Positions 8,217-53,513 are shown, numbered from the stretch's first letter. The stretch: 64,000 nucleotides of DNA from an uncultured Fibrobacterota bacterium (GCA_963753345.1 CAVWBU010000024.1:32001-96000); one strand, 5' to 3'. Numbers and translations are program-made. The notes: generated from the letters alone by a model not told the origin.

Positions 8217-8362
8217 TGGGCGCCCCGCCGAAGACGGCGGCGGTTCTCCTTCCGGTCTCGGCCGCAGGCCTCGGGCTGCCACGGCCCTATGGCCCACAGG
8301 GCCGGGTCCGGGCAGCATCCTGCTCTAGCGGGACCTCCAGTCGCCCTTGGCGCGCGGGCAGA
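8217..8362 (+). repeat. Dispersed structured repeat, module A (solo, slightly diverged)
   Basis: tgggcg...cggttctccttccggtctcggccgcaggcctcggg...gcgggacctccagtcgcccttggcgcgcgggcag matches the other A copies. Confidence 0.85.
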
Positions 8363-8469
8363 GGTTGACCTGCCGCGAAATGATTTTTCAAGTCAATAAG
8401 AAAAAGAGAGTTTTGGCATTCTCGTTCTTTTAAAAAGTCAGCGACGAGTTTACAGAAAGGCTGGAGTAT

Positions 8470-21936: not shown

Positions 21937-22009
21937 GGGATTTGTACCAACATTAAGTAAAAATAACCCATGGAGAATTGATAGAAGACATGAAAAACAT
22001 CCTATTGGC

Positions 22010-22483
22010 GGGGGAGGTTTCCCCCTGCCTGCGGCCGCCTCCGGCGTCCTCCGTCACCCCCTCCTGGGTGCACCCCAAGAGAGGGTCGTTGCAAGAGTCA
22101 AGCTTCGGTTGGGGGGCACCCGTGGAGAGTAGTTGTACCGAGCACTTTTCTTTCTCTGTCTCTTTGTCACTTTGTAAGTTTCTGCCTGTGGCGGCACCCA
22201 AGGAGAGCAGTGGGAAATAGAGCCGTTGCAAAGTTGAGTAATTGTAATGTTGACAACAGGGAGGAAGCCAGGCCAATCTTTTGCGAATGCTAATTGGCGC
22301 AAGAAAAAGTAATTGGCTGAATAGAATTTCCCATGCCGCGCGTTAGGCAGGACTGGAAAAATGGTCCCGCTTGAGGCGGGATGCTGCCTGACCACGGCCC
22401 GCAGGGCCCTCGTGGCAGGCGGCCCGAGGCCGAAGGCCGAGACCGTAAGGACGGCCGACCCGAGCGCAACGAGGGGAACGCCA
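22010..22483. repeat. Composite structured repeat: module B (+, 22010-22130) and module A (-, 22334-22483)
   Basis: gggggaggtttccccc...ctcctgggtgcaccccaag...ggggggcacccgtggag, then tgccgcgcgttagg...gaggggaacgcca. Confidence 0.9.
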
Positions 22484-22518
22484 CGCTTATTTACTAAATG
22501 CGAAACTACGCCTGCAAA

Positions 22519-25362: not shown

Positions 25363-25412
25363 AATCATCCCATTTATTCCCCTAAAATGACTGCGCATTG
25401 CTGATGCCACCG

Positions 25413-25567
25413 CTCTCCTCGGGTGCCCCCGCAACAGAGTATGGTTTTGCAACCACCCTTTCTTGGGGTGCACCCAGGAGAGGGTAGCGGAGGACCGGCG
25501 CGCGGTTGGTAGCGTGAAAAAAGACGAGAGCGCGCGCCGGGCCGCAGCGAGGGGGAAACTTCCCCCC
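25413..25567 (-). repeat. Dispersed structured repeat, module B (solo)
   Basis: Reverse strand ggggggaagtttccccctcgctgcggcc...cctccgctaccctctcctgggtgcaccccaag...gcgggggcacccgaggagag. Confidence 0.88.
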
Positions 25568-25691
25568 ATGAATACTCTTCATTTTTAATTTTCTTCATCA
25601 CCTGACTCCAAACTTTTCCTCTCAATATCTTCCCCTTACCCCTGTATCCTGTTATATTTTACCCCCTACCGAAAACCGGGAGAAAACAAAC

Positions 25692-28941: not shown

Positions 28942-29070
28942 AACCCGACCTTTCCCAGTCCGGAAAAATGGCGTGTGAGGGTGAATCAGAAACAATCGGT
29001 TAAAAATACGTATTTCCACGGGGAGAAGGGAATGAGAAGTTGTATCTGTAATTATTACATAATAAGAATA

Positions 29071-29214
29071 TGGGCGTTTCCCTCGCTACGCTCGGGCCGG
29101 TCTCCCTCCGGGCTCGGCCTTCGGCCTCGTTGCCGGATCGCCCTATGCCTATCGGCCGGGTCGACCGGCAATCCCGCTATGGCGGGACCGCTCCGGTCCA
29201 CCTAACGCGCGGCA
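29071..29214 (+). repeat. Dispersed structured repeat, module A (solo)
   Basis: tgggcgtttccctcgctacgctcggg...tcccgctatggcgggacc...cctaacgcgcggca. Confidence 0.9.
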
Positions 29215-29304
29215 AGGGGAATCTGTTTTGTCAAGAAGTAATATTTGCGCCGCAAGGAATTATCATGGATAAGCACATATGAGTCCTTACTTATTAGTCA
29301 TTGA

Positions 29305-39062: not shown

Positions 39063-39100
39063 GATTCTATTCCTTTCCTATTTATTAATACCAAAAAGAT

Positions 39101-39517
39101 TGGGCGTTCCCCTCGCTTTCGCTCGGGTCGGTTCTCCTTCCGGTCTCGGCCGTTCGGCCTCGGGCCGCCACGGCCCTATGCCGCGAGTACGCGGCCGGGT
39201 CCGGGCGGCACCCCGCTATGGCGGGACCTCCAGTCGCCCCTAACGCGCGGCAGAGGAATTCTATTAAGTCAACTCCTTCTTCTCGCGCCAATCCAATTGA
39301 CCTCACCCCTATCCCCTCTCCTAATGGAGAGGGGCACGGACATGCTATGGCCCCTTCCAATTTTCGCTCGTGGGTGCCGCCGCAACAATGTATGGTCTTG
39401 CCGCTGCTTTATCAAGGCGGCTACCCAGGAGGGGGTAGCGGAAGACCGGCGCGCGATGGACGATGGGAAATAAATGAAAATAGCGCACCGGGCTGAAGCG
39501 AGGGGGAACCTTCCCCC
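39101..39517. repeat. Composite structured repeat: module A (+, 39101-39252) and module B (-, 39367-39517), with nested CCCCTCTCC hairpin
   Basis: tgggcgttcccctcgct...cagtcgcccctaacgcgcggcag; cccctctcc-taat-ggagagggg near 39313-39334; tgggtgccgcc...ggaaccttccccc. Confidence 0.92.
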
Positions 39518-39544
39518 ACCAAATATTTATTGGCATATCCTGGT

Positions 39545-43842: not shown

Positions 43843-44063
43843 AAAAAAGCCCTCACGTCGTTTCTCTGCAAGTCAATCGAATATAATTCTTCGCCGCCCG
43901 GATTCTTGTAGGGAAACAGGGCGAAGGACCGTGTCGCGGACCGCTCGCGGCTGTTGAGTGGGCGCGGCCCGCGAGCTATATTCTACCCTTCGTTCATTGC
44001 CAGGGGATTTTTTTTCAATCCCGTACCGGTGCTCATCCACCCTTCACCCAAAAGGACCTCTTC

Positions 44064-44576
44064 ATGACGCAAGCATCCTCCCTCACCGCCTCAATCAAGA
44101 CCGAAAAAGGCGCCATCCGTCTCAATCTGTTTGCCGACAAGGCGCCGCTCACGGTCGCCAACTTCGTGAACCTCGCCAGGCGCGGGTTCTACAACAACCT
44201 TAGATTTCACCGCGTGATTGCCGACTTCATGATCCAGGGCGGGTGCCCCAAGGGCAACGGCACCGGCGGGCCCGGGTACAAGTTCCGGGATGAATTTGTC
44301 AAGGACCTGCGCCACGACAGGCCCGGCGTCCTTTCCATGGCCAATTCCGGACCCAACACCAACGGCAGCCAGTTTTTCATCACGCATGTGCCGACGCCCT
44401 GGCTCGACGACCATCACACCGTGTTCGGCGCGGTGACCGGCGAACAGGACATGGCGGTTGTCAACAGCATCAAGTCGGGAGACAGGATCGATGTGATTGA
44501 GATCGAGGGCAACGCGGAGGGGCTGCTCAAAGAGCAGAGGGAGGATGTGGAGAAGTGGAATAAAAAGCTGGGATAA
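44064..44576 (+). CDS. Cyclophilin-type peptidyl-prolyl isomerase
   Basis: [31 protein letters not shown] and [10 protein letters not shown] motifs. Confidence 0.96.
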
Positions 44577-44586
44577 GGAAAAAAAC

Positions 44587-44793
44587 TGGGCGTTCCCCCG
44601 CTTCGCGGGGTCGGTTCTCCTTCCAGCTCGGCTGGTCAGCCTCGTTGCCGGTCCGCCCCTAGTCGCGTTCACGCTTCGCGCCCTCCGGGCCGCCTGCGGC
44701 GGTGGTCTCCGCGCCTTCGGCGCTCCGGCTCGGCGAGGGGTCGGCCGGCAATCCCGCATTGGCGGGACTTCCAGTCGCCCCTAACGCGCGGCA
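44587..44793 (+). repeat. Dispersed structured repeat, module A (solo, with ~60-nt internal hairpin insertion)
   Basis: First 80 nt identical to the copy at 46570; ends ccagtcgcccctaacgcgcggca. Confidence 0.92.
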
Positions 44794-44941
44794 ACAGAGC
44801 TCTTTTCCGTCAAGTTTCAATAATTGCGCCATCCGGAATTCTCACCAAATAATTCGGAATCACCCCTTCAACACCATCCGTCAACTGTCAACTATATTGA
44901 CTTCGCTCATTGGTGCCTCTTGTCAAGGCCGCATCAACCGG

Positions 44942-46395
44942 TCATTTCATCAACGAAATCATCTTTTCCTGATGTTCCTCGCCCGCTTTGAAGACGACCA
45001 GATATGCGCCTGCGGCAAGCTTGCCCCGTTGCATGCTCAATGAATAATTCCCGGCATCCTGATGCTTGTTGACAAGTTCGGATTGCAATTGGCCATTGAT
45101 ACTATACAGCCGCAGGGAGACATGCCCGGCTTGGGGAATTGAATAGGCGAACTTAACTAATGCGCATTTGCAACTGCTTACCTGCAAACCGGCATGCTTT
45201 GCGGTTGATGACGCTGAGATGGGTTGGGTCACAAGGGAAGGGGAAGTGCTATCGAACTGGGCGAAATAGGCCTGACCAAAACCCTGGCCTTCGCTGGCGA
45301 ACAACCCTCCGGCATATATCGTTGATCCCTTCACGGCGAGTGAATAGACACCGCCAGGTAAGTTCGGTTTCCAAGCTAAGACAGTCCCTGCTGTCCCATC
45401 CAAGGCTGCCATATCGGAGCGGGTCTGCCCGCCAATGCTGTCAAAGAGCCCCCCGCATATATCGTTGTCCCGCTCACAGCGATTGAATTGACAATGCAAT
45501 AACTGGCGGGATAGTAGAAATGCCGAAATGCATTCGGGTTCCAAGCCAATGCATTCCCTGTTGTCGCATCCAATGCAGCAATATAGTTGCGGTTCTGCCC
45601 GCCAATGTTGGTGAAGCGCCCTCCAGCATACACTGTTGTCCCGTTCACGGCGAGTGATTTGACCCAGTAGTCCGCATTTGGGTTCCAGCTCAATACATTA
45701 CCCGTTGTCGCCTCCAAGGCCGCGATATAGTTGCGGGTCTGCGCGCCAATGGTGTTGAAGGCTCCTCCTACGTATATCGTTGTCCCGCTCACCGCGAGTG
45801 AATAGACACCGTCGCTCGCATCCGGGTTCCATGCCAGGGCATTCCCTGTTGTCGCATCCAATGCTCCTATGTTTTTACGGCTCTGGCCGCCAATGCTGTC
45901 GAACAAGCCTCCTACATATACGGTAGTCCCGCTCACGGCAATAGACAAGACATCGCTTATTAAATTGCCGTTCGCATTCGGGTTCCAGCTCGTTGCATTC
46001 CCTGTTGTCACATCCAGTGCGGCGATATGGTTGCGTCTTTGCCCGTCGATGATGGTGAAATCCCCTCCAGCATATACTGTTGTCCCGCTCACAGTGAGTG
46101 TTTGGACACCGCTGTTTGCATTCGGATTCCAGGCCGTGGGTTCCCCCGTTGTCGCATCCAAGGCTGCGATATTGTTGCGAACCACACTGTGAATGGTGTC
46201 GAAGACCCTGTCGAAGACCCCGCCGATACATGGCCCAACCCGAGTAAAATTCCCTCCAATGTAAACTTTGTCCCCGGCGGGCGCAATCGCAGAGACCGGG
46301 CCATTGGTGACCCATGTGTTCTGGTTGCACGTGTCCGACGGCAAGGCCTGCAGGAGCGCTGCGAGGGAAATGATAATAAGAGCCATCTTTTTCAT
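44942..46395 (-). pseudogene. Beta-propeller-like repeat protein with T9SS-like CTD, frameshifted at a G6 run
   Basis: About 6 repeats of RN.IAALDATTG...WNP.A...V.SLAVSGTT.Y.GG.F; the frame switches at the C run 45449-45454 (G7 would restore it); C-terminal LYSINGQL...GAYLVVF. Confidence 0.75.
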
Positions 46396-46569
46396 AGCGT
46401 CCTCCTTGCAGATGATTTTAGCAAATCGTCGCTTTCCGCATTTGACCATTCCTTCCCTATTCAATAATATACAGTATATACCTTTTTGTCCACGGCAATA
46501 CAACACCCTGCCGAACAAAGCGGTTTCTGCCAGAAAACACCCCTCGCAGCAATGAAGAAGAAAAGAAAT

Positions 46570-46935
46570 TGGGCGTTCCCCCGCTTCGCGGGGTCGGTTC
46601 TCCTTCCAGCTCGGCTGGTCAGCCTCGTTGCCGGTCCGCCCCTAGTCGCCTTCGGCGAGGGGTCGGCCGGCAATGTGCTCCGGCACACTTCCAGTCGCCC
46701 CTAACGCGCGGCAGAGGAAATTTCTTCAGTCAATTGTTATTTCTTGCGCCAGCCGAAATTTTCAAGGAGCAAATCATTGTTTTCTTCTTGAACTTCTCAA
46801 CTACTCTCCGTGGGTGCCCCCACACCAAGGTATGATTCCACAGCTATCTTTTCTTGGGGGCCACCCAGGAAGGGGTAGCGCAGGACACCGCAGGCCGAAG
46901 GCCGAGGAGGCCGGAGCTAGGGGGATACCTCCCCC
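46570..46935. repeat. Composite structured repeat: module A (+, 46570-46713) and module B (-, 46804-46935)
   Basis: Same conserved blocks as the other composites. Confidence 0.92.
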
Positions 46936-47094
46936 GCAGAGCAGCTTTTCTCCACTTTCTAATTGAAACTCTTACATTGTCAAAATCCCTCCCCATCCAG
47001 CTTTTGACATTCAATAATGTATATTCCTAAGATTGTAGCATCTGCCTCTTATCTGCAAACATGTCGACGTAAAGGTCCCGGGAAAGGGAACCCC

Positions 47095-48405
47095 ATGAAG
47101 GACATAAACATAGGCCTGGTCGGCGCGGGAGTTGTGGGCGGCGGGGTGGTTAAGATGCTGTCCCAGAAGGCGGCCTATTTCCGCGAAAGCCTGGGTCTTC
47201 CGCTTGTCCTTAAGCGGATCGCAGACAAGGCCGCCAACCGCTTCACGGAGCTGCCGGTGGGCACTGCGGTGTGCACCGAAAATGCCGATGATATCCTGAA
47301 CGACAAAGACATTCAGATTGTGATCGAGCTGGTCGGTGGGACCGCCTTTGCACGGTCTCTCATCACCTCGGCGGTCTCGAAGGGCAAGCACGTGATCACC
47401 GCGAACAAGGCGCTTATCGCGGAATGCGGCCCGGAACTTTTCCAGCTTGCCGAAAAGAACAACGTGTCCATACTCTTCGAAGCCGCGGTGGGCGGCGGCA
47501 TGCCCGTGATAAAGACCATCCGCGAGGCCCTGCTTGCCAACGAGATCACCATGGTGAAGACCATCATCAACGGCACCTGCAATTACATCCTTACGCAGAT
47601 GGCCGACAAGGGCCTTCTGTTCGACACCGCGCTCAAGAAGGCGCAGAAGGCCGGCTTTGCCGAGGCCGACCCGACGCTCGACATCGGCGGCGGCGACAGC
47701 GGCCACAAGGTGGCCATCATGGCCTCGCTCATCCACGGCGGGTATGTTCCCCTTAACAAAGTGTACATCGAGGGCATCACCAATATTTCCAAGGAAGACA
47801 TCACCTTTGCCCAGGACCTGGGATACTGCATAAAACTGCTCGGCATCATCCGGAAGACCCAGGGCGACGACCGCGTTGATGTGCGCGTGCACCCGGCGAT
47901 GCTCCATCGCAAGCACATCCTGGCCTCGGTGGGCGACGTGTTCAACGCGGTCCTCCTCGAGGGAAACGCGGTGGGCGCCACGCTCCTGTACGGCCGCGGC
48001 GCGGGCGAACTGCCCACGGCCTCAGCCGTGGTGAGCGACATCGTGGACGTTGCGAGGAACATCTCGTCCGGCGCGCCGAAGCGCATCCCCATGAGCTACT
48101 ACCGTCTTGACAACGAGATAAAAGTGAAGCCCATCGGCGAAGTGGTGTCCCGGTACTACCTGTGCTTCTGGGTGTCCGACAAGCCGAAAGTCCTGGCGTC
48201 CATAGCGGCCGTGCTCGGCAATTATTCCATCTCGATCGCCTCGGTGCTCCAGAAGGAGTCCACCGAGGAAAGCTGTGTGCCCGTCATCTTTCTCACCCAC
48301 AAGGCGGTGGAGAAGAACATGCGCGACGCGCTCAAGGAAATCGAGACCATGGAGTTCATCAAGAAGCCGACGCACGTGATAAGGATAACGGGGCAGACGT
48401 ATTAG
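47095..48405 (+). CDS. hom: Homoserine dehydrogenase with C-terminal ACT domain
   Basis: GAGVVGGG, TANK, EAAVGGGMP, INGTCNYIL, AEADP, GRGAG..PTASAV and DKPKVL motifs. Confidence 0.96.
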   Translation: MKDINIGLVGAGVVGGGVVKMLSQKAAYFRESLGLPLVLKRIADKAANRFTELPVGTAVCTENADDILNDKDIQIVIELVGGTAFARSLITSAVSKGKHVITANKALIAECGPELFQLAEKNNVSILFEAAVGGGMPVIKTIREALLANEITMVKTIINGTCNYILTQMADKGLLFDTALKKAQKAGFAEADPTLDIGGGDSGHKVAIMASLIHGGYVPLNKVYIEGITNISKEDITFAQDLGYCIKLLGIIRKTQGDDRVDVRVHPAMLHRKHILASVGDVFNAVLLEGNAVGATLLYGRGAGELPTASAVVSDIVDVARNISSGAPKRIPMSYYRLDNEIKVKPIGEVVSRYYLCFWVSDKPKVLASIAAVLGNYSISIASVLQKESTEESCVPVIFLTHKAVEKNMRDALKEIETMEFIKKPTHVIRITGQTY

Positions 48406-48413
48406 GATTTTTG

Positions 48414-48508
48414 CGCCTCACCCTTTCCCCCCCACCCCCTCTTCCCCTCTCCACTCGTGGAGAGGGGAAGAGGGGGTGGCCGACAGGCCGGGGAGATGAG
48501 GTGAGGCG
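48414..48508. repeat. Long purine/pyrimidine-segregated palindrome (REP-like)
   Basis: Perfect arms ccaccccctcttcccctctccac / gtggagaggggaagagggggtgg inside outer IR cgcctcacc/ggtgaggcg. Confidence 0.8.
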
Positions 48509-48549
48509 AACGAAAAAGCAAATTTCACTATTAACCAGAATTTGTCATC

Positions 48550-49896
48550 ATGAATAAACCACATCTTCGTCCCTTCGGCAAAAGCGACAAAACCTACCCC
48601 ATCACCGACATCAGATACCGCAGCGACGACGGCCGCACGCTCGAGGTTGACAATTGCATCGCTCCCATGGACGCAAGAAAAGCGTCCGCGCTGCGCGCAC
48701 TGTTTGACACAAGGCTCATGTCGCGCAAGCCCCTTGACAGAAGCGGCGTATGGCGCTACCGGGAGTTTTTGCCCGCGTTCAAACCGTATGGCGGCGTGGT
48801 TACCATGGAAGAAGGCAACACTACGATTTTCGACATGCCGAAATGCGCGGCGTTCTGCGGCATTGATTCTCTTTTTGCAAAGCACCAGGGGCTCAACCCG
48901 ACCGGCTCGTTCAAGGACAACGGCATGACCACCGCTGTCACCATGGCAAAAAAGCTCGGCGCGACCATGGTGGCGTGCGCGTCAACCGGCAACACCTCGG
49001 CCTCCATGGCCGCGTACGCGGCGCGCGCGGGCATGAAGAGCATCGTCTTTATCCCGGACGGCCAGATCGCGTACGGCAAGCTGTCGCAGTCGCTCGACTA
49101 CGGCGCGCTTACCATCCAGATCGCGGGCGATTTCGACAAGGCAATGGAGATCGTGGAAAGCCTGTGCAACCGCGGAAAAATTTATCTGCTCAATTCGATC
49201 AACCCGTTCCGCATCGAGGGACAGAAGACAATCATGATCGAAATGCTCCACCAGCTTTCGTGGAAAGCGCCGGACTGGGTGATTGTTCCGGGAGGGAACC
49301 TGGGCAACTCCAGTTCGTTCGGGAAGGCGTTTGACGAAATGGTGCGGGCGAAGTTCATCAAGAAGGCCCCGAGGATCGCGGTGATCCAGGCGCAGGGCGC
49401 CAACCCGCTGTACAACAGCTTCGTGTCGGGCGACAGAACGCTGCATCCGGTTCACGCCGACACACGGGCGACCGCCATCAAGATAGGAAATCCTGTAAGC
49501 TTCGACAAGGCGGTGTTCGCGGTGGATTCCACCAAAGGCACGGTGGAACAGGTTGACGAACAGGAAATCGCTGCGGCCAAGTCCTTTATCGGCAGGGACG
49601 GCGTGGGGTCCGAGCCCGCCTCGGCCACCACGGTGGCGGGCTGCAGGAAACTTGTCGGAAAGGGAATTGTCGGGAACTCCGACAGCGTGGTGTGCATCCT
49701 CACCGGCCATCTTCTCAAGGACCCGGACTATACCGTTGAATTCCACAGGGACGAACTGTATCTTGACGCGCAGCGAAACACAACATTGTCCGGCACCAAG
49801 CGTATTTCCACCGGCGGGTTGCATAATAAACCGGTGAAGCTTCCCGCGGATGAGAATGAGATTATAAAGTATATAGATTCGTGGGCGAAGAAATAA
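48550..49896 (+). CDS. thrC: Threonine synthase
   Basis: NPTGSFKD (PLP Lys), CASTGNTSAS, NSINPFR.EGQKT and PGGNLGN motifs. Confidence 0.95.
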   Translation: MNKPHLRPFGKSDKTYPITDIRYRSDDGRTLEVDNCIAPMDARKASALRALFDTRLMSRKPLDRSGVWRYREFLPAFKPYGGVVTMEEGNTTIFDMPKCAAFCGIDSLFAKHQGLNPTGSFKDNGMTTAVTMAKKLGATMVACASTGNTSASMAAYAARAGMKSIVFIPDGQIAYGKLSQSLDYGALTIQIAGDFDKAMEIVESLCNRGKIYLLNSINPFRIEGQKTIMIEMLHQLSWKAPDWVIVPGGNLGNSSSFGKAFDEMVRAKFIKKAPRIAVIQAQGANPLYNSFVSGDRTLHPVHADTRATAIKIGNPVSFDKAVFAVDSTKGTVEQVDEQEIAAAKSFIGRDGVGSEPASATTVAGCRKLVGKGIVGNSDSVVCILTGHLLKDPDYTVEFHRDELYLDAQRNTTLSGTKRISTGGLHNKPVKLPADENEIIKYIDSWAKK

Positions 49897-49912
49897 TAAT
49901 AGTGTTCTTGGT

Positions 49913-50394
49913 GGGGGAAGTGTCCCCCTAGGGTGCGGCTTCCGTCGCCTCCTTGATAAATGCAAAACCAGAAAATCCGGAGGCGACGGCGATCCGCACC
50001 CATACCCCCTCGTGGGTAGCCCCCAAGAAAGCTGATTTGCAAGAAAGAAACATCGGCTGCGGGGGCACCGAGAAAGAGAGTTGAATAGTTGAGAAGTTGA
50101 GGAGTTGAAGAAGATCAAAACAAATTGGTGATCTTTTCTTCGAGAATTCAAGCTGGCGCAGAAAAAGGACGTGGCTGAATATATTTCATCCTGCCGCGCG
50201 TTAGGCAGGACTGGAAAAATGGTCCCGCTGATGCGGGATGCGCCCTGACCGCGGCCGGAGGGCCTTTGTGGCAGGCAGCCCGAGGCCGAAGGCCGACGAC
50301 CCTTGTGACCCTTGGAAATCCCTGGCGAGGGAGAAGCACCCGAAGGGGTGGACCGGAAGGAGGGCCGACCCGAGCGTGGCGAGGGGAACGCCCA
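49913..50394. repeat. Composite structured repeat: module B (+, 49913-50080) and module A (-, 50191-50394)
   Basis: gggggaagtgtccccc...tacccc...gggtagcccccaag...gggggcacc; 8-mer agttga repeats in the spacer; ctgccgcgcgttagg...gaggggaacgccca. Confidence 0.9.
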
Positions 50395-50424
50395 TCTCTA
50401 TTTGAAAAGGAAAAAGGATTAACG

Positions 50425-51616
50425 ATGAAATATATAATATTAGTAGGCGACGGCATGGCCGACTTCCCCATCCCCGAGCTTGACAACCGCACACCGCTCG
50501 AATACGCCAGGACCCCGAACATGGACGCAGTGGCGAAGGCGGGCCGCGTGGGGCTCGTAAAAACCGTTCCCGACGGTGTCCCGCCGGGCAGCGACGTGGC
50601 CAACATGTCGCTTATGGGATACGACCCCGTGAAGTACTATTCCGGCCGCGCACCTATCGAGGCGGCGAGCATGGGAATCGCGCTTGACAAAACCGACGTG
50701 GCGTTCCGCTGCAACCTGGTGACGCTCAAGTGCGGGCTCATGGAAGACTATTCCTCGGGCCACATTGAGACGCCGGACGCACACGAAATAATTGCTGCTT
50801 TACAGAAGGAACTCGGCGCTCCGGCCGTGACATTCCATCCCGGCGTGAGCTACCGTCACCTCACCGTGATTTCTCATTTCCCGGATGGCAAGCTCGACTG
50901 CACGCCGCCGCACGATATTTCCGGAAAGGCCTACGGGGAACACCTTCCCTCGGGGTGCGGCCAGGATATTGTCCGGCGCCTCATGGAGGATGCCCGGCCC
51001 GTGCTTGCCTCCTCGCCCGTCAACAAACGGCGCGAAGCGCAGGGAAAAAAGCCCGCCACCGACATCTGGCTGTGGGGCCAGGGAAAGGCCGTGTGTGCTG
51101 CCCACGATGAAGGAACGGTTCGCGATTTCCGGGTCCGTGGTTTCGGCGGTGGACCTTGTGCGCGGCCTTGGCGTGCTGGCGGGACTCAACGTGCGCATCG
51201 TCCCGGGCGCCACCGGCTACCTCGGCACCAACTACGCCGGCAAGGTCGCGGCCGCCCGCGAGGCCCTTGCGAAAGAGGACTTCGCGTTCGTGCACGTGGA
51301 GGCGCCCGACGAGACCTCGCACGAGGGCGACCGCGAAAAGAAACTGCAGGCCATCGAGGAGTTCGACAAAAACGTCGTGGGCGAGGTGCTCAAATTCCGC
51401 GAAACATTCCCCGATCTCCGGATCATGGTGCTCCCGGACCACGCCACGCCCCTGTCGCTCAAAACCCATCACGCCGCGCCGGTTCCGTTTGCCGTGTGCG
51501 GAAAAGGCGTTGATCCGGACGGCAGTCTTGCGTATTGCGAAAAAGCCGCGGTTGGGAAAAAGATGTATACGGGAGTGACGCTGTTTGAGACGTTTATAAA
51601 AGGCAAATTTGAATAA
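50425..51616 (+). pseudogene. apgM: ApgM-family cofactor-independent phosphoglycerate mutase / proposed homoserine kinase, with +1 frameshift
   Basis: GDGMAD, GSDVAN, SYRH, PPHDI and WLWGQG in one frame; SAVDL, HVEAPDE.SH, PDH and TH in the next. Switch at gtgtgtg 51091-51097, probably an assembly error. Confidence 0.85.
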
Positions 51617-51636
51617 TAATAATACAATATTTTTGT

Positions 51637-52040
51637 GGGGGAAGTATCCCCCTCGCTCCGGCCGTCTCCGGCGTCCTCCGCTACCCCCTCCTGGGTGACC
51701 CCCAAGTAGGAGTAGTTGCAAGAATCAAGCACCTGTGTGGGGGCACCCACGGAGAGCAGTGAAATAGTTGAGAAGGCGAGACAGTAGAGAAGCTACAAGA
51801 TAAAACGTTGTTTTACTCCCTGGGGAATCCGGCTGGCGCAAAAAGATTGTTCTTGACAGAATGGATTCCTTCTGCCGCGCGTTAGGGGCGACTGGAGGTC
51901 CCGCCATAGCGGGATGCTGCCTGACCACGGCCCGAAGGGCCCTCGTGGCAGGCGGCCCGAGGCCGAAGGCCGAGACCGGAAGAAGAACCGACCCTTTGTA
52001 GAGCCGCATAGCAGTGCGGCTCTACAAAGGGGAACGCCCA
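51637..52040. repeat. Composite structured repeat: module B (+, 51637-51760) and module A (-, 51872-52040)
   Basis: Same conserved blocks; the terminal A hairpin is replaced by a perfect 17-bp stem. Confidence 0.92.
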
Positions 52041-52067
52041 CCTAAATGCATAATTGAAGAATTAATT

Positions 52068-53513
52068 ATGTTTGCACGATTCATCGAAAAAGCCCTCACC
52101 TTCCTCATCGACATCGTCGCCTTCAACGTTGCGTTTGCAACGGCATTCTGGATCCGGTACAAGAGCAATTTCTTTCCCGAAAGCTTCAACGCCGACATCG
52201 AGTTTTCGTCGTATATCCTATTGTCAATTACCGTCGCGGGCTGCTGGGCGGCGCTGTTTTTTGTTACCGGCCTGTACCGCGACTGGTACAAAGAGTCGCG
52301 GCTCGACGAGTTCTTCGTGGTCGTGCGCACCATTCTCATCGGCATCTTTCTCTTGTTTCTCATAACGAGCGCATCGCAGATCATCGATTTCGCGACCAGC
52401 GGCAATTTCGAACAGGTCTTTACAAGAACGAAGTTCGCTGTGCTGATCACCTATGCCGTGTGCCTCGTTTTCTTCACCACCGCAGACCGCTTCATCATGC
52501 ACAGCCTTCTGTCGTTCCTGTTTGTGCGCGGCATCGGCGTGAGCAAGGTGCTCATCATCGGCGCGCAGGAACCCGGCGCGCAGCTGCTCGACGAGCTGAA
52601 GCATTATCCCCAGCTCGGATACCAGGTGAAGGGCTTTGTCGACGACAACGGCAGGCTCACTGGCACGCAATGCGGCGGCCTTCCCGTGCTCGGCACCTAT
52701 TCCGACATTCCCGCTCTTGTCAAGAGAGACCGGGTGACCGGCCTCATCATTTCCCACGTGTCCGGTTCGGCAAACGAAATTCTCAAGATCGTCAACTACT
52801 GCGGCGAGCTCCGGCTCACCATTTCCATGGTGCCGTCGCTTATGGACGTAATCTCGGGACACCTCAAGACCCACCAGATCTTCGGCGTGCCGCTCATGAT
52901 CCTTCTCCAGGACCACATGCCCGCGTGGGAGGCGCAGATCAAGCGCATCACCGACATTGTCGTTTCGCTGCTCGTGTTGGCGCTCGGCGCGCCGGTCTGG
53001 CTGGCCGTTGCCGCGGTGATACGCCTCACCTCACCGGGCCCCGCCATTTACAACCAGGAACGCGTGGGCCAGAACGGCAAGCCCTTCATCATGCACAAGT
53101 TCCGCTCCATGTACCAGGACGCCGAAAAGCGCACCGGTCCCATGTGGGCAAAGGAAAAGGACCCCCGCATCACGCCCATGGGGCGTTTTATCCGGAAGAC
53201 AAGGCTTGACGAAATACCCCAGTTTTTCAACGTGCTGGTGGGCGAAATGAGCCTCGTGGGCCCGCGGCCGGAGCGGGCGTTTTTCATCCAGCAGCTCAAG
53301 CAGGAGATCCCCTGGTACGTCCGCCGCATCAAGATGAAGCCGGGCATCACGGGCTGGGCGCAGGTGAAACACAAGTACGATGCGTCAATCGAGGATGTCA
53401 AGCAGAAAGTGATGTACGACCTGTACTATTTCGAAAACATGTCCCTCATGCTCGACCTCAAAATAATGCTGCACACCATTCTGGTGGTGTTCACGGGCAA
53501 AGGGGCGCATTGA
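52068..53513 (+). CDS. Undecaprenyl-phosphate sugar phosphotransferase (WcaJ-like)
   Basis: KRITDI, KFRSM, DPRITPMG, LDEIPQ, SLVGPRPE and KPGITGWAQV motifs; CoA-binding-like central domain. Confidence 0.93.
   Translation: MFARFIEKALTFLIDIVAFNVAFATAFWIRYKSNFFPESFNADIEFSSYILLSITVAGCWAALFFVTGLYRDWYKESRLDEFFVVVRTILIGIFLLFLITSASQIIDFATSGNFEQVFTRTKFAVLITYAVCLVFFTTADRFIMHSLLSFLFVRGIGVSKVLIIGAQEPGAQLLDELKHYPQLGYQVKGFVDDNGRLTGTQCGGLPVLGTYSDIPALVKRDRVTGLIISHVSGSANEILKIVNYCGELRLTISMVPSLMDVISGHLKTHQIFGVPLMILLQDHMPAWEAQIKRITDIVVSLLVLALGAPVWLAVAAVIRLTSPGPAIYNQERVGQNGKPFIMHKFRSMYQDAEKRTGPMWAKEKDPRITPMGRFIRKTRLDEIPQFFNVLVGEMSLVGPRPERAFFIQQLKQEIPWYVRRIKMKPGITGWAQVKHKYDASIEDVKQKVMYDLYYFENMSLMLDLKIMLHTILVVFTGKGAH

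Follow-up and report, generated by a model that had tools for sequence, protein, structure and literature searches.

A mosaic hairpin repeat with a strand-specific scaffold in a Fibrobacterota genome, probably a composite branch of the Flavo-1 superfamily

What kind of element is a bacterial repeat that keeps its scaffold and exchanges its hairpins? One point of reference is the REP unit, a short imperfect palindrome of 20-40 nt with a 5′ GTAG, together with the REPINs, which are moved by RAYT; another is Flavo-1, whose occurrence extends to the Spirochaetes. As far as the consulted parts of the papers go, Flavo-1 (RF01705; Weinberg et al. 2010) was catalogued by comparative genomics as a candidate small RNA (sRNA) of Bacteroidetes with 239 matches (PMC2864571), its matches lie sense, antisense or outside transcribed regions (PMC9723704), and it is one of the most abundant sRNA families of Rfam and has no assigned function (PMC9029176). 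Those parts of the Flavo-1 literature contain no description of it as a mobile or single-stranded DNA (ssDNA) element, and a search for literature on repeats in Chitinivibrionales or Fibrobacterota found nothing relevant. Here we describe a composite hairpin repeat from an uncultured Fibrobacterota bacterium, starting from a stretch of 64,000 nt (GCA_963753345.1, CAVWBU010000024.1:32001-96000), referred to below as the window and numbered from its first letter. Four copies lie at positions 44587-52040, read on the strand ending GGAACGCCCA, and nhmmer located a further five outside that span within the window. Considering the evidence set out below, we think it probable that one part of the repeat, module A, is related to the Flavo-1 superfamily, though diverged and with three arms, and that the element as a whole is a composite Fibrobacterota branch of it.

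In the consensus of 146 full copies, the element is about 420 nt long. It begins with module B (about 140 nt) and closes with module A (about 145-200 nt); the linker between the two contains AGTTGA heptads in tandem and a stretch, TTGGCGCAAGAA...TTGAC, that is conserved and unpaired. The constant parts of module A are the closing stem GCGTT/AACGC, purine-rich junctions, the tandem-G·A hairpin CGAGGC...GCCGAG and the 3′ end GGGGAACGCCCA; between them, the arms vary freely in sequence, length and base composition. A single query copy gave 454 nhmmer matches in the source assembly (4,516,072 bp, 94% complete), a number that rose to 531 after one iteration, covering 141,425 nt or 3.1% of the genome, so that the repeat stands far above chance. 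Merging left 504 copies. Both ends are present in 146 of them; 139 extend to the 5′ end alone, 130 to the 3′ end alone, and 89 reach neither. Six of these 504 lie mostly inside called genes (by our own crude gene caller), and the outer ends of copies lie at a median of 15-23 nt from stop codons. The repeat is also present in many copies in four of the five other genomes of the genus, one congener having none.

The initial annotation had proposed that selection acts on a folded multibranch structure, and covariation in structural alignments supports this, with a clear excess over shuffled controls in both modules. For module A we used an alignment, A1, of 30 copies from five genomes of the genus, with a curated structure of 34 pairs in nine helices. 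In it, 94.3% of cells pair, versus 84.3% in shuffled alignments and 29-48% with slid partners; both-sided change was seen in 17 of the 34 pairs (10.2 shuffled, 3-8 slid); and the covariation score was 0.245 against 0.093, a value reached in none of 500 shuffles. The long-range helices P1 and P2 covary over approximately 130 nt. In module B, 145 distinct full copies with 24 pairs gave 95 double-change cells, versus 20.8 ± 3.5 after shuffling, and none of 200 shuffles came as high. Recent changes, read by comparing each copy of the source genome with its five nearest copies, tell the same way: derived single changes affected 1.13% of 9296 paired site-observations versus 4.9% of 6823 unpaired ones, an approximately fourfold ratio that misalignment of loops may inflate by raising the unpaired rate, and 31 of 35 double changes restored a Watson-Crick pair. 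The compensatory reading needs one qualification. Paired changes within stems do occur, but a part of the apparent compensatory evolution is the reassortment of ready-made hairpins between copies, which were not changed in place.

The fold that matters is that of the strand ending GGAACGCCCA, which is read in single-stranded form. This strand is singled out by four asymmetries, namely the GNA triloops, the fixed G and A of the loops, the GA/GA pairs and the C>A changes in stems, and they bear out the strand specificity claimed at the outset. Among 1239 triloops on perfect stems of at least 4 bp, a census that takes in chance hairpins, 386 are GNA and 106 TNC, and in the rest of the genome 7% are GNA. 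The H3 loop begins with G in 67 and ends with A in 75 of 81 cases, its middle base being A in 53 and G in 22; in H5 loops of the CCC-GA-GC type the corresponding numbers are 28 and 27 of 35, with C (15), T (10), A (6) or G (4) in the middle. Tandem 2x2 loops are GA/GA in 113 cases versus TC/TC in 6, and among recent changes in stems C>A outnumbers G>T by 21 to 4, versus 18 to 21 at unpaired sites. Both strands fold well (z about -3 each), the forward strand having a slight advantage, seen in 156 of 219 copies under RNA parameters and in 177 of 219 under DNA parameters.

The swapping of hairpins is real, and it takes the form of mosaic reassortment, reuse of cassettes at different scaffold positions and compensatory changes. 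We scored the linkage between arms state by state, single-linkage clustering having merged everything into one type. Between covarying pairs, the normalised mutual information was 0.8-0.9 for the closest neighbours and mostly 0.05-0.6 otherwise, and between the terminal hairpin H5 and all other pairs it was at most 0.08 (shuffle level about 0.004); of the variant combinations, all four are common. Turnover can also be followed at orthologous sites, since the intergenic regions thrC|apgM and apgM|next gene contain differently built copies across five congeners. For example, in congener G001, whose genes are 90% identical, the site of the window copy at 51622 keeps the terminal palindrome with a different loop, has other H1 and H2 arms and a cassette after H3, and lacks module B, and G005 and G003 each have one orthologous site without modules A and B.

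Two cassettes illustrate the reuse. A 40-nt palindrome bearing GTAG lies inside copies in 23 of 23 cases, 16 times as the terminal hairpin and 7 times at the tip of arm H2, two copies having both, and its arms are perfectly complementary across seven sequence variants. Cassette X, of 27 nt with the core GAAGCACCCGAAGGGGTGG, has 74 matches, 66 of them inside copies and 65 of these 66 on the element strand; it occupies at least three positions (after H3, in the junction and in the 5′ strand of H2), each beside a CGAC|GAC microhomology among the best 40 of the 74 matches. We suppose that copies reassort by recombination or gene conversion with breakpoints within the conserved scaffold; in addition, ready-made hairpin cassettes are put to use again at other scaffold positions, and paired changes arise inside stems. 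As separate observations, the eight cassette X matches outside merged copies include two inside CCCTCTCC...GAGAGGG hairpins (C18:30561 and C26:200148), similar to a hairpin at 48418-48490 of the window, and at C18:57841-57869 an H2-tip palindrome is joined straight to the element 3′ end, which looks as if two palindrome cassettes had recombined with deletion of the part between them.

How far does this scaffold extend beyond the genus? Covariance model R1 of module A scored 93-148 bits in four of the five congeners and had no match in the remaining one; scores of 40-63 bits came from several genera elsewhere in the order and from a few elsewhere in the phylum, with 17 of 151 genomes matching at E <=1e-4. 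In one of the matching genomes, H2 has shrunk to a 3-nt loop and the scaffold is intact. A scan of one genome per GTDB species with the pattern GCGCGTTAGG-N105-135-GGGGAACGCCCA returned at least 62 loci, against a chance expectation that we estimate at about 2. Among the matches listed, 47 are in records labelled Fibrobacterota, Fibrobacter or Chitinivibrionales, and 15 in records labelled Flavobacteriia/Bacteroidota, Ignavibacteriota, Spirochaetota or, once, Bifidobacterium. When these 15 and one Fibrobacter-labelled locus were scanned with Rfam models, 6 of the 16 matched Flavo-1 at E <=0.1, and three exceeded its gathering score of 42 bits (L107, 54.1 bits; L097, 51.4 bits; L085, 50.2 bits), each with both exact end motifs. 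The record of L107 is labelled uncultured Bifidobacterium sp., an unexpected host, so that its contig, with 49% G+C, a 54-bit Flavo-1 match and both end motifs, may be mis-binned.

Within single genomes, pairs of end motifs numbered 2 in a Flavobacterium, 3 in an Algibacter, 7 in an Ignavibacteria metagenome-assembled genome (MAG) and 33 in a Treponemataceae MAG, the reversed-pattern control giving 0, 0, 1 and 0, respectively. The five Treponemataceae copies that were read are near-identical within a subtype. Their arms are AT-rich, but the closing stem is unchanged, the junctions are rich in GA, the terminal hairpin reads CCC-GA-(G/A)C-GATA-G(C/T)-GA-GGG, and the hairpin modules lying upstream form mosaic combinations; a search of that genome for the two end motifs separately found no long version. 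The Rfam Flavo-1 model itself gave 94 matches in the 3.6 Mb Flavobacterium genome, 14 in that of Algibacter and none in that of the Treponemataceae MAG. Among Flavo-1 matches picked without the pattern, the closing stem could be seen by eye in five of six from Algibacter and in none of seven from Flavobacterium, where the top matches are of a core-only type with no closing stem or terminal hairpin. The scaffold common to module A and the threshold-passing Flavo-1 sequences consists of the GCGTT/AACGC stem, the CCGACCC junction, the terminal hairpin and a GGGGAACGCC-type 3′ end, features shared also by the extended Algibacter members at or near threshold. Like Flavo-1, the present element is multi-copy, intergenic and found in either orientation relative to transcription, and it has a 5′ motif, GCGUUAGG, and a long irregular stem whose internal loops are rich in purines. 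The Flavo-1 core has the irregular stem GGGAUAGUAGCGGAAAUCC/GGAUUGAAGCGGAUAGCCC where module A has GGNGACYGGAGG/CCGGARGGAGAACC, both being purine-rich and aligned by eye only. Unlike Flavo-1, which has one hairpin in that place, module A has three arms (H1-H3), its host is a Fibrobacterota bacterium, and it is joined to module B and the heptad tract. The Flavo-1 superfamily occurs in multiple copies in Bacteroidota, Ignavibacteriota and Spirochaetota, and with the present element in Fibrobacterota as well, and it looks more like a mosaic mobile repeat than an sRNA gene family.

We infer that the element is, or was, mobile and that a protein reads its fold on a single strand. In the mechanism that we propose, the fold would be recognised on single-stranded nucleic acid by the machinery that spreads or maintains the element. 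The distribution across phyla is patchy, and one lineage has near-identical copies. Extending the mechanism to the whole Flavo-1 superfamily, as cross-phylum mobile elements that an enzyme recognises as folded ssDNA and not small RNAs, is tentative, and we regard it as possible but doubtful; such an enzyme would read the GA-rich multibranch scaffold alone, and the arms would be free cargo.

A number of results weigh against our reading. On the side of kinship, the Flavo-1 model gave no match at the gathering score in the window, none at E <=5 in 46500-47000, and none at E <=0.01 in the source genome, where 150 of 456 candidates were scored, and the R1 matches on cross-phylum loci (14 of 16) are not independent because the pattern had imposed both ends. 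On the side of mobility, the source genome, where two candidates were scored, has no match to a Y1 transposase, RAYT included (PF01797), and TnpB (PF07282) has none there or in genomes G155 and G156. Target-site duplication was not found, the longest string shared by the two flanks having a mean length of 4.27 versus 4.14 in shuffled flanks, and at the orthologous sites no clean empty site could be aligned. In module A, the identity between nearest neighbours has a median of 90.8% (215 copies) and reaches at least 98% in 3 of the 215, which means that there has been no recent burst in the source genome. Four candidates for an autonomous element, in the order module B, gene, module A, were considered and rejected, none having a transposase. 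Of 334 copies, 191 are oriented in line with GC skew (25 kb), so weak a bias that it counts against a lagging-strand ssDNA route of the IS200/IS605 type, not against ssDNA as such. Finally, in tandem-gene contexts the sense orientation predominates for module B (32:9) and for full copies (56:22), and stems are about fourfold better conserved than unpaired sites on terminal branches, which is unexpected for a purely selfish element.

Several related observations may be placed here. The contigs of four DNA runs break at the repeats and yielded no clean empty-site joint, the joints seen being other copies of the family. A gene stands between module B and module A in two of the cases, coding for an endonuclease/exonuclease/phosphatase (EEP)-family protein and a methyltransferase; in the former (L022, C47:84184-85368 of the source genome), the 394-aa gene has the orientation of the two modules on either side, a solitary module B and a solitary module A, a placement that is probably a coincidence. 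IS110 was rejected as a partner, with one copy each in the source genome and G155 and a sub-threshold match in G156, the family being too common for this to have meaning.

Whether the fold is read on DNA or on RNA is a further matter, on which we lean toward DNA at rather less than even strength, with RNA clearly behind and the rest undecided. C(GNA)G mini-hairpins such as d(GCGAAGC) and d(GCGAAAGC) melt at 76.5 °C, versus 39 °C for r(GCGAAAGC), and they are found in ssDNA priming sites and N4 promoters, according to the consulted part of PMC13037366. The expected marks of RNA are scarce: a census of 1330 tetraloops contained 24 GNRA and 2 UNCG loops, and among recent single changes in stems, G·T (34) versus A·C (26) indicates no RNA-like wobble excess. 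That comparison had been suggested as a means of telling the strands apart, and it favours neither; over all copies the numbers are 152 versus 233 in module A and 96 versus 73 in module B. A comparison of DNA and RNA folding energies was likewise undecided, the forward strand being slightly favoured by both sets, because neither parameter set reproduces the special stability of GNA mini-hairpins. The caveat of the initial annotation that the opposite strand reads CUUCGG-like, which would suit RNA, needs correcting: the string CTTCGG exists, but in the register of the stem it forms a TTC triloop and not C(UUCG)G. The view that ssDNA is more likely than RNA thus holds as a lean, given these counts and the even orientation of module A alone in tandem-gene contexts (19 sense, 20 antisense), and it falls short of being established, given the bias of module B and the catalogue entry of Flavo-1 as a candidate sRNA.

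That entry (PMC2864571, in part) is also the natural starting point for the strongest of the other explanations, in which module A, and Flavo-1 generally, would be a structured RNA, either an sRNA gene or an element of untranslated regions (UTRs) such as an mRNA stabiliser, processing site or terminator, whose fold is selected copy by copy. The sense preference and the conservation of stems noted above are what such an RNA would lead one to expect, as are the purine-rich unpaired regions, the tandem G·A pairs, which are typical of RNA motifs, and a T-rich tract behind the element 3′ end in the source genome. Moreover, in the consulted parts of two reports, Flavo-1 matches in F. psychrophilum fall on several 5′ transcribed regions (PMC9723704), and a Leptospira long-read preprint has Flavo-1 among regions with transcripts. 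We nevertheless consider this explanation rather unlikely. The orientation of module A alone is even, Flavo-1 lies sense, antisense or outside transcribed regions, GNRA and UNCG loops are as rare as described, and G·T changes do not exceed A·C; there is no conserved sigma-70-like promoter ahead of module A, the T-rich flank is missing in other phyla, and orthologous sites in congeners differ in whether the element is present. Nor is there an enrichment of terminator-like sites (9 versus 10.5 expected in 44000-53000), and with the T-rich flank present in the source genome but not in other phyla we rejected an intrinsic terminator. A 5′-UTR or promoter role was rejected as well: six of the nine window copies end 26-50 nt before a co-oriented start codon, but across the whole genome the genes that follow the 3′ end are split evenly, 135 co-oriented and 136 opposed.

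Could the fold be free of selection altogether? Template switching in quasi-palindromes, together with gene conversion, might produce perfect hairpins in a neutral, decaying repeat, and this would suit the perfect complementarity of palindrome variants that differ in sequence, the mosaic structure of copies, the microhomology CGAC|GAC...ACC shared by the cassette X sites and the lack of near-identical copies in the source genome. These processes are strand-symmetric, however, and cannot yield the biases of triloops, tandem loops and stem changes toward one strand; they would also leave unexplained the long-range covariation of P1 and P2 and the conservation of unpaired, non-palindromic junction motifs over four phyla, and we judge the explanation improbable. 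A role in double-stranded DNA seems more improbable still, to the point that we give it hardly any weight. For BIMEs, binding and cruciform roles involving IHF and gyrase have been proposed, and the present repeat, BIME-like in being intergenic, modular and mosaic, with two strands that both fold well and a conserved unpaired stretch in the linker, might similarly serve as a platform for a nucleoid or other protein or as a supercoil-driven cruciform. A duplex or cruciform gives no cause for G·A pairs and GNA loops to gather on one strand, though, nor for pairing to be kept while the sequence of the arms is free.

Other folded elements can be set beside the present repeat. Like REP, BIME and REPIN sequences, the present one is high-copy and intergenic, lies just past stop codons and is built of mosaic hairpin modules; a folded single strand is a plausible substrate in both, and one cassette has GTAG beside a palindrome. 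Unlike them, it has a multibranch scaffold of 140-200 nt and a second module in place of a 20-40-nt palindrome, no PF01797 match accompanies it in the source genome, and all 23 of its GTAG palindromes are internal cassettes. Palindrome-associated transposable elements (PATEs) derived from IS200/IS605 share with it the lack of target duplication and of long terminal inverted repeats, the hairpins near both ends and the strand-specific fold, whereas the source genome lacks TnpA and TnpB, the GC-skew bias is weak and the two end hairpins are unlike each other. A miniature inverted-repeat transposable element of a DDE transposon was rejected, since the ends of the composite are unlike each other, module A has just a 5-7-nt inverted pair, GCGTT/AACGC, and the flanks show no duplication.

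Strand-specific ssDNA folds of 100-300 nt with C(GNA)G mini-hairpins are known from single-strand initiation sites (ssi; G4-type, ssiA), single-strand origins (sso) and the hairpin promoters of phage N4 (PMC13037366, in part). Those are single sites of phages or plasmids, in contrast to approximately 500 chromosomal copies in both orientations that are known here from sequence alone. As in the attC sites of integrons, which are read as folded ssDNA and have a GTTAGGC-like string, the structure is conserved and the sequence free; the order here, in contrast, is 5′ GTT...AAC 3′ and not 5′ RYYYAAC...GTTRRRY 3′, and copies stand in both orientations between housekeeping genes, unlike attC with its one orientation in cassette arrays.

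The nine copies of the window show how the same scaffold is fitted out, and the hairpins reported for them in the initial annotation were all recovered at their positions when the sequence was read again. The copy at 44579-44917 (minus strand; nhmmer model positions 122-403) lacks module B and consists of linker and module A (44586-44793, in A1). It has the terminal hairpin CCCC-GCGAAGC-GGGG, the H1 arm TCCCGC-CAAT-GCGGGA, and in H2 an extra stretch of some 60-75 nt (about 44662-44736) that forms three small GNA-triloop hairpins and appears as a 75-nt skip at 44661-44737 when other copies are aligned to it. The full copy at 46568-46942 (minus strand; model positions 10-422, 268 bits) has module A at 46569-46713, a linker and module B at about 46790-46942; it ends in the same hairpin H5, CCCC-GCGAAGC-GGGG, with H1 swapped for TGTGC-CGGA-GCACA, and its module A (C24:78569-78713) scores 136 bits with R1. 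Between thrC and apgM, the full copy at 49903-50397 (plus strand; model positions 7-423), read also by its orthologous sites, carries a long replacement hairpin in module B (49931-50001), an AGTTGA heptad tract (about 50078-50115) and, in module A (50192-50395), an insertion of about 55 nt after arm H3 (50297-50350), which is a cassette X, itself interrupted, and is included in the census of that cassette as C24:82333, that is, window position 50333. The full copy between apgM and the next gene (51622-52043, plus strand) served as the nhmmer query; it has module B at about 51635-51765 and module A at 51873-52041, and in place of its terminal hairpin stands the 40-nt palindrome bearing GTAG at 51992-52031 (census entry C24:83998-84025), with the perfect 17-bp stem CCCTTTGTAGAGCCGCA/TGCGGCTCTACAAAGGG.

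The remaining five copies were located by nhmmer and read in sequence. The full copy at 39099-39530 (minus strand) has the GAAA-loop hairpin CCC-GA-GC-GAAA-GC-GA-GGG and, in module B, the stem CCGCC/GGCGG in place of CCCCC/GGGGG, the changed pair being CG in 102 and GC in 38 of the 145 distinct full copies. The copy at 29069-29281 (minus strand) has module A only, with the GTA-loop hairpin CCC-GA-GC-GTA-GC-GA-GGG; that at 21996-22490 (plus strand) is full, with extra sequence in the linker; that at 25402-25575 (minus strand) has module B only; and that at 8232-8433 (minus strand) is a partial, diverged module A. The loops GGCC-GAA-GGCC flanked by GA/GA, GGCCC-GCA-GGGCC and GGCCC-GAA-GGGCC recur.

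As to the surroundings of these copies, apgM (50426-51616), which encodes a cofactor-independent phosphoglycerate mutase, appears as two overlapping open reading frames in different frames (50266-51513 and 50885-51616); orthologs align across the whole 1191 nt, which suggests a frameshift or an assembly error near 51090. The hairpin at 48418-48490, between hom and thrC, belongs to a different repeat, CCCCACCCCCTCTTCCCCTCTCC...GGAGAGGGGAAGAGGGGGTGG. On the minus strand at 45376-46449 lies a gene with six tandem repeats of 144 nt (48 aa), whose predicted product looks like a repeat protein of the beta-propeller type with a signal-peptide-like start. The heptad tract, (AGTTGAA)n, stands between modules B and A in many copies, the tract in the 49903 copy being an example; in the element-free congener G003, (CTTTACT)n-like tracts lie directly 5′ of start codons at the same loci, in the intergenic regions next to apgM (L015), and the G005 site without modules A and B retains a stretch resembling GAGTTGA. 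Instead of belonging to the repeat, the tract may be a native promoter or leader sequence.

Flavo-1 has been without a function since 2010, and in this study it is placed in a wider family across four phyla, which behaves as a mosaic mobile repeat with a conserved strand-specific scaffold and free arms. For genome annotation, this means that the hundreds of Flavo-1-like 'sRNA genes' in a genome may be repeats and not genes. For evolution, the element offers a clear bacterial case of a folded element that grows through the addition and exchange of hairpins. If true, its reading as an ssDNA mobile element would explain the gain of hairpins, the swapping of arms and the adoption of the base composition of the host, and the work as a whole directs attention to the strand that is read, to its form, DNA or RNA, and to the protein that reads it.

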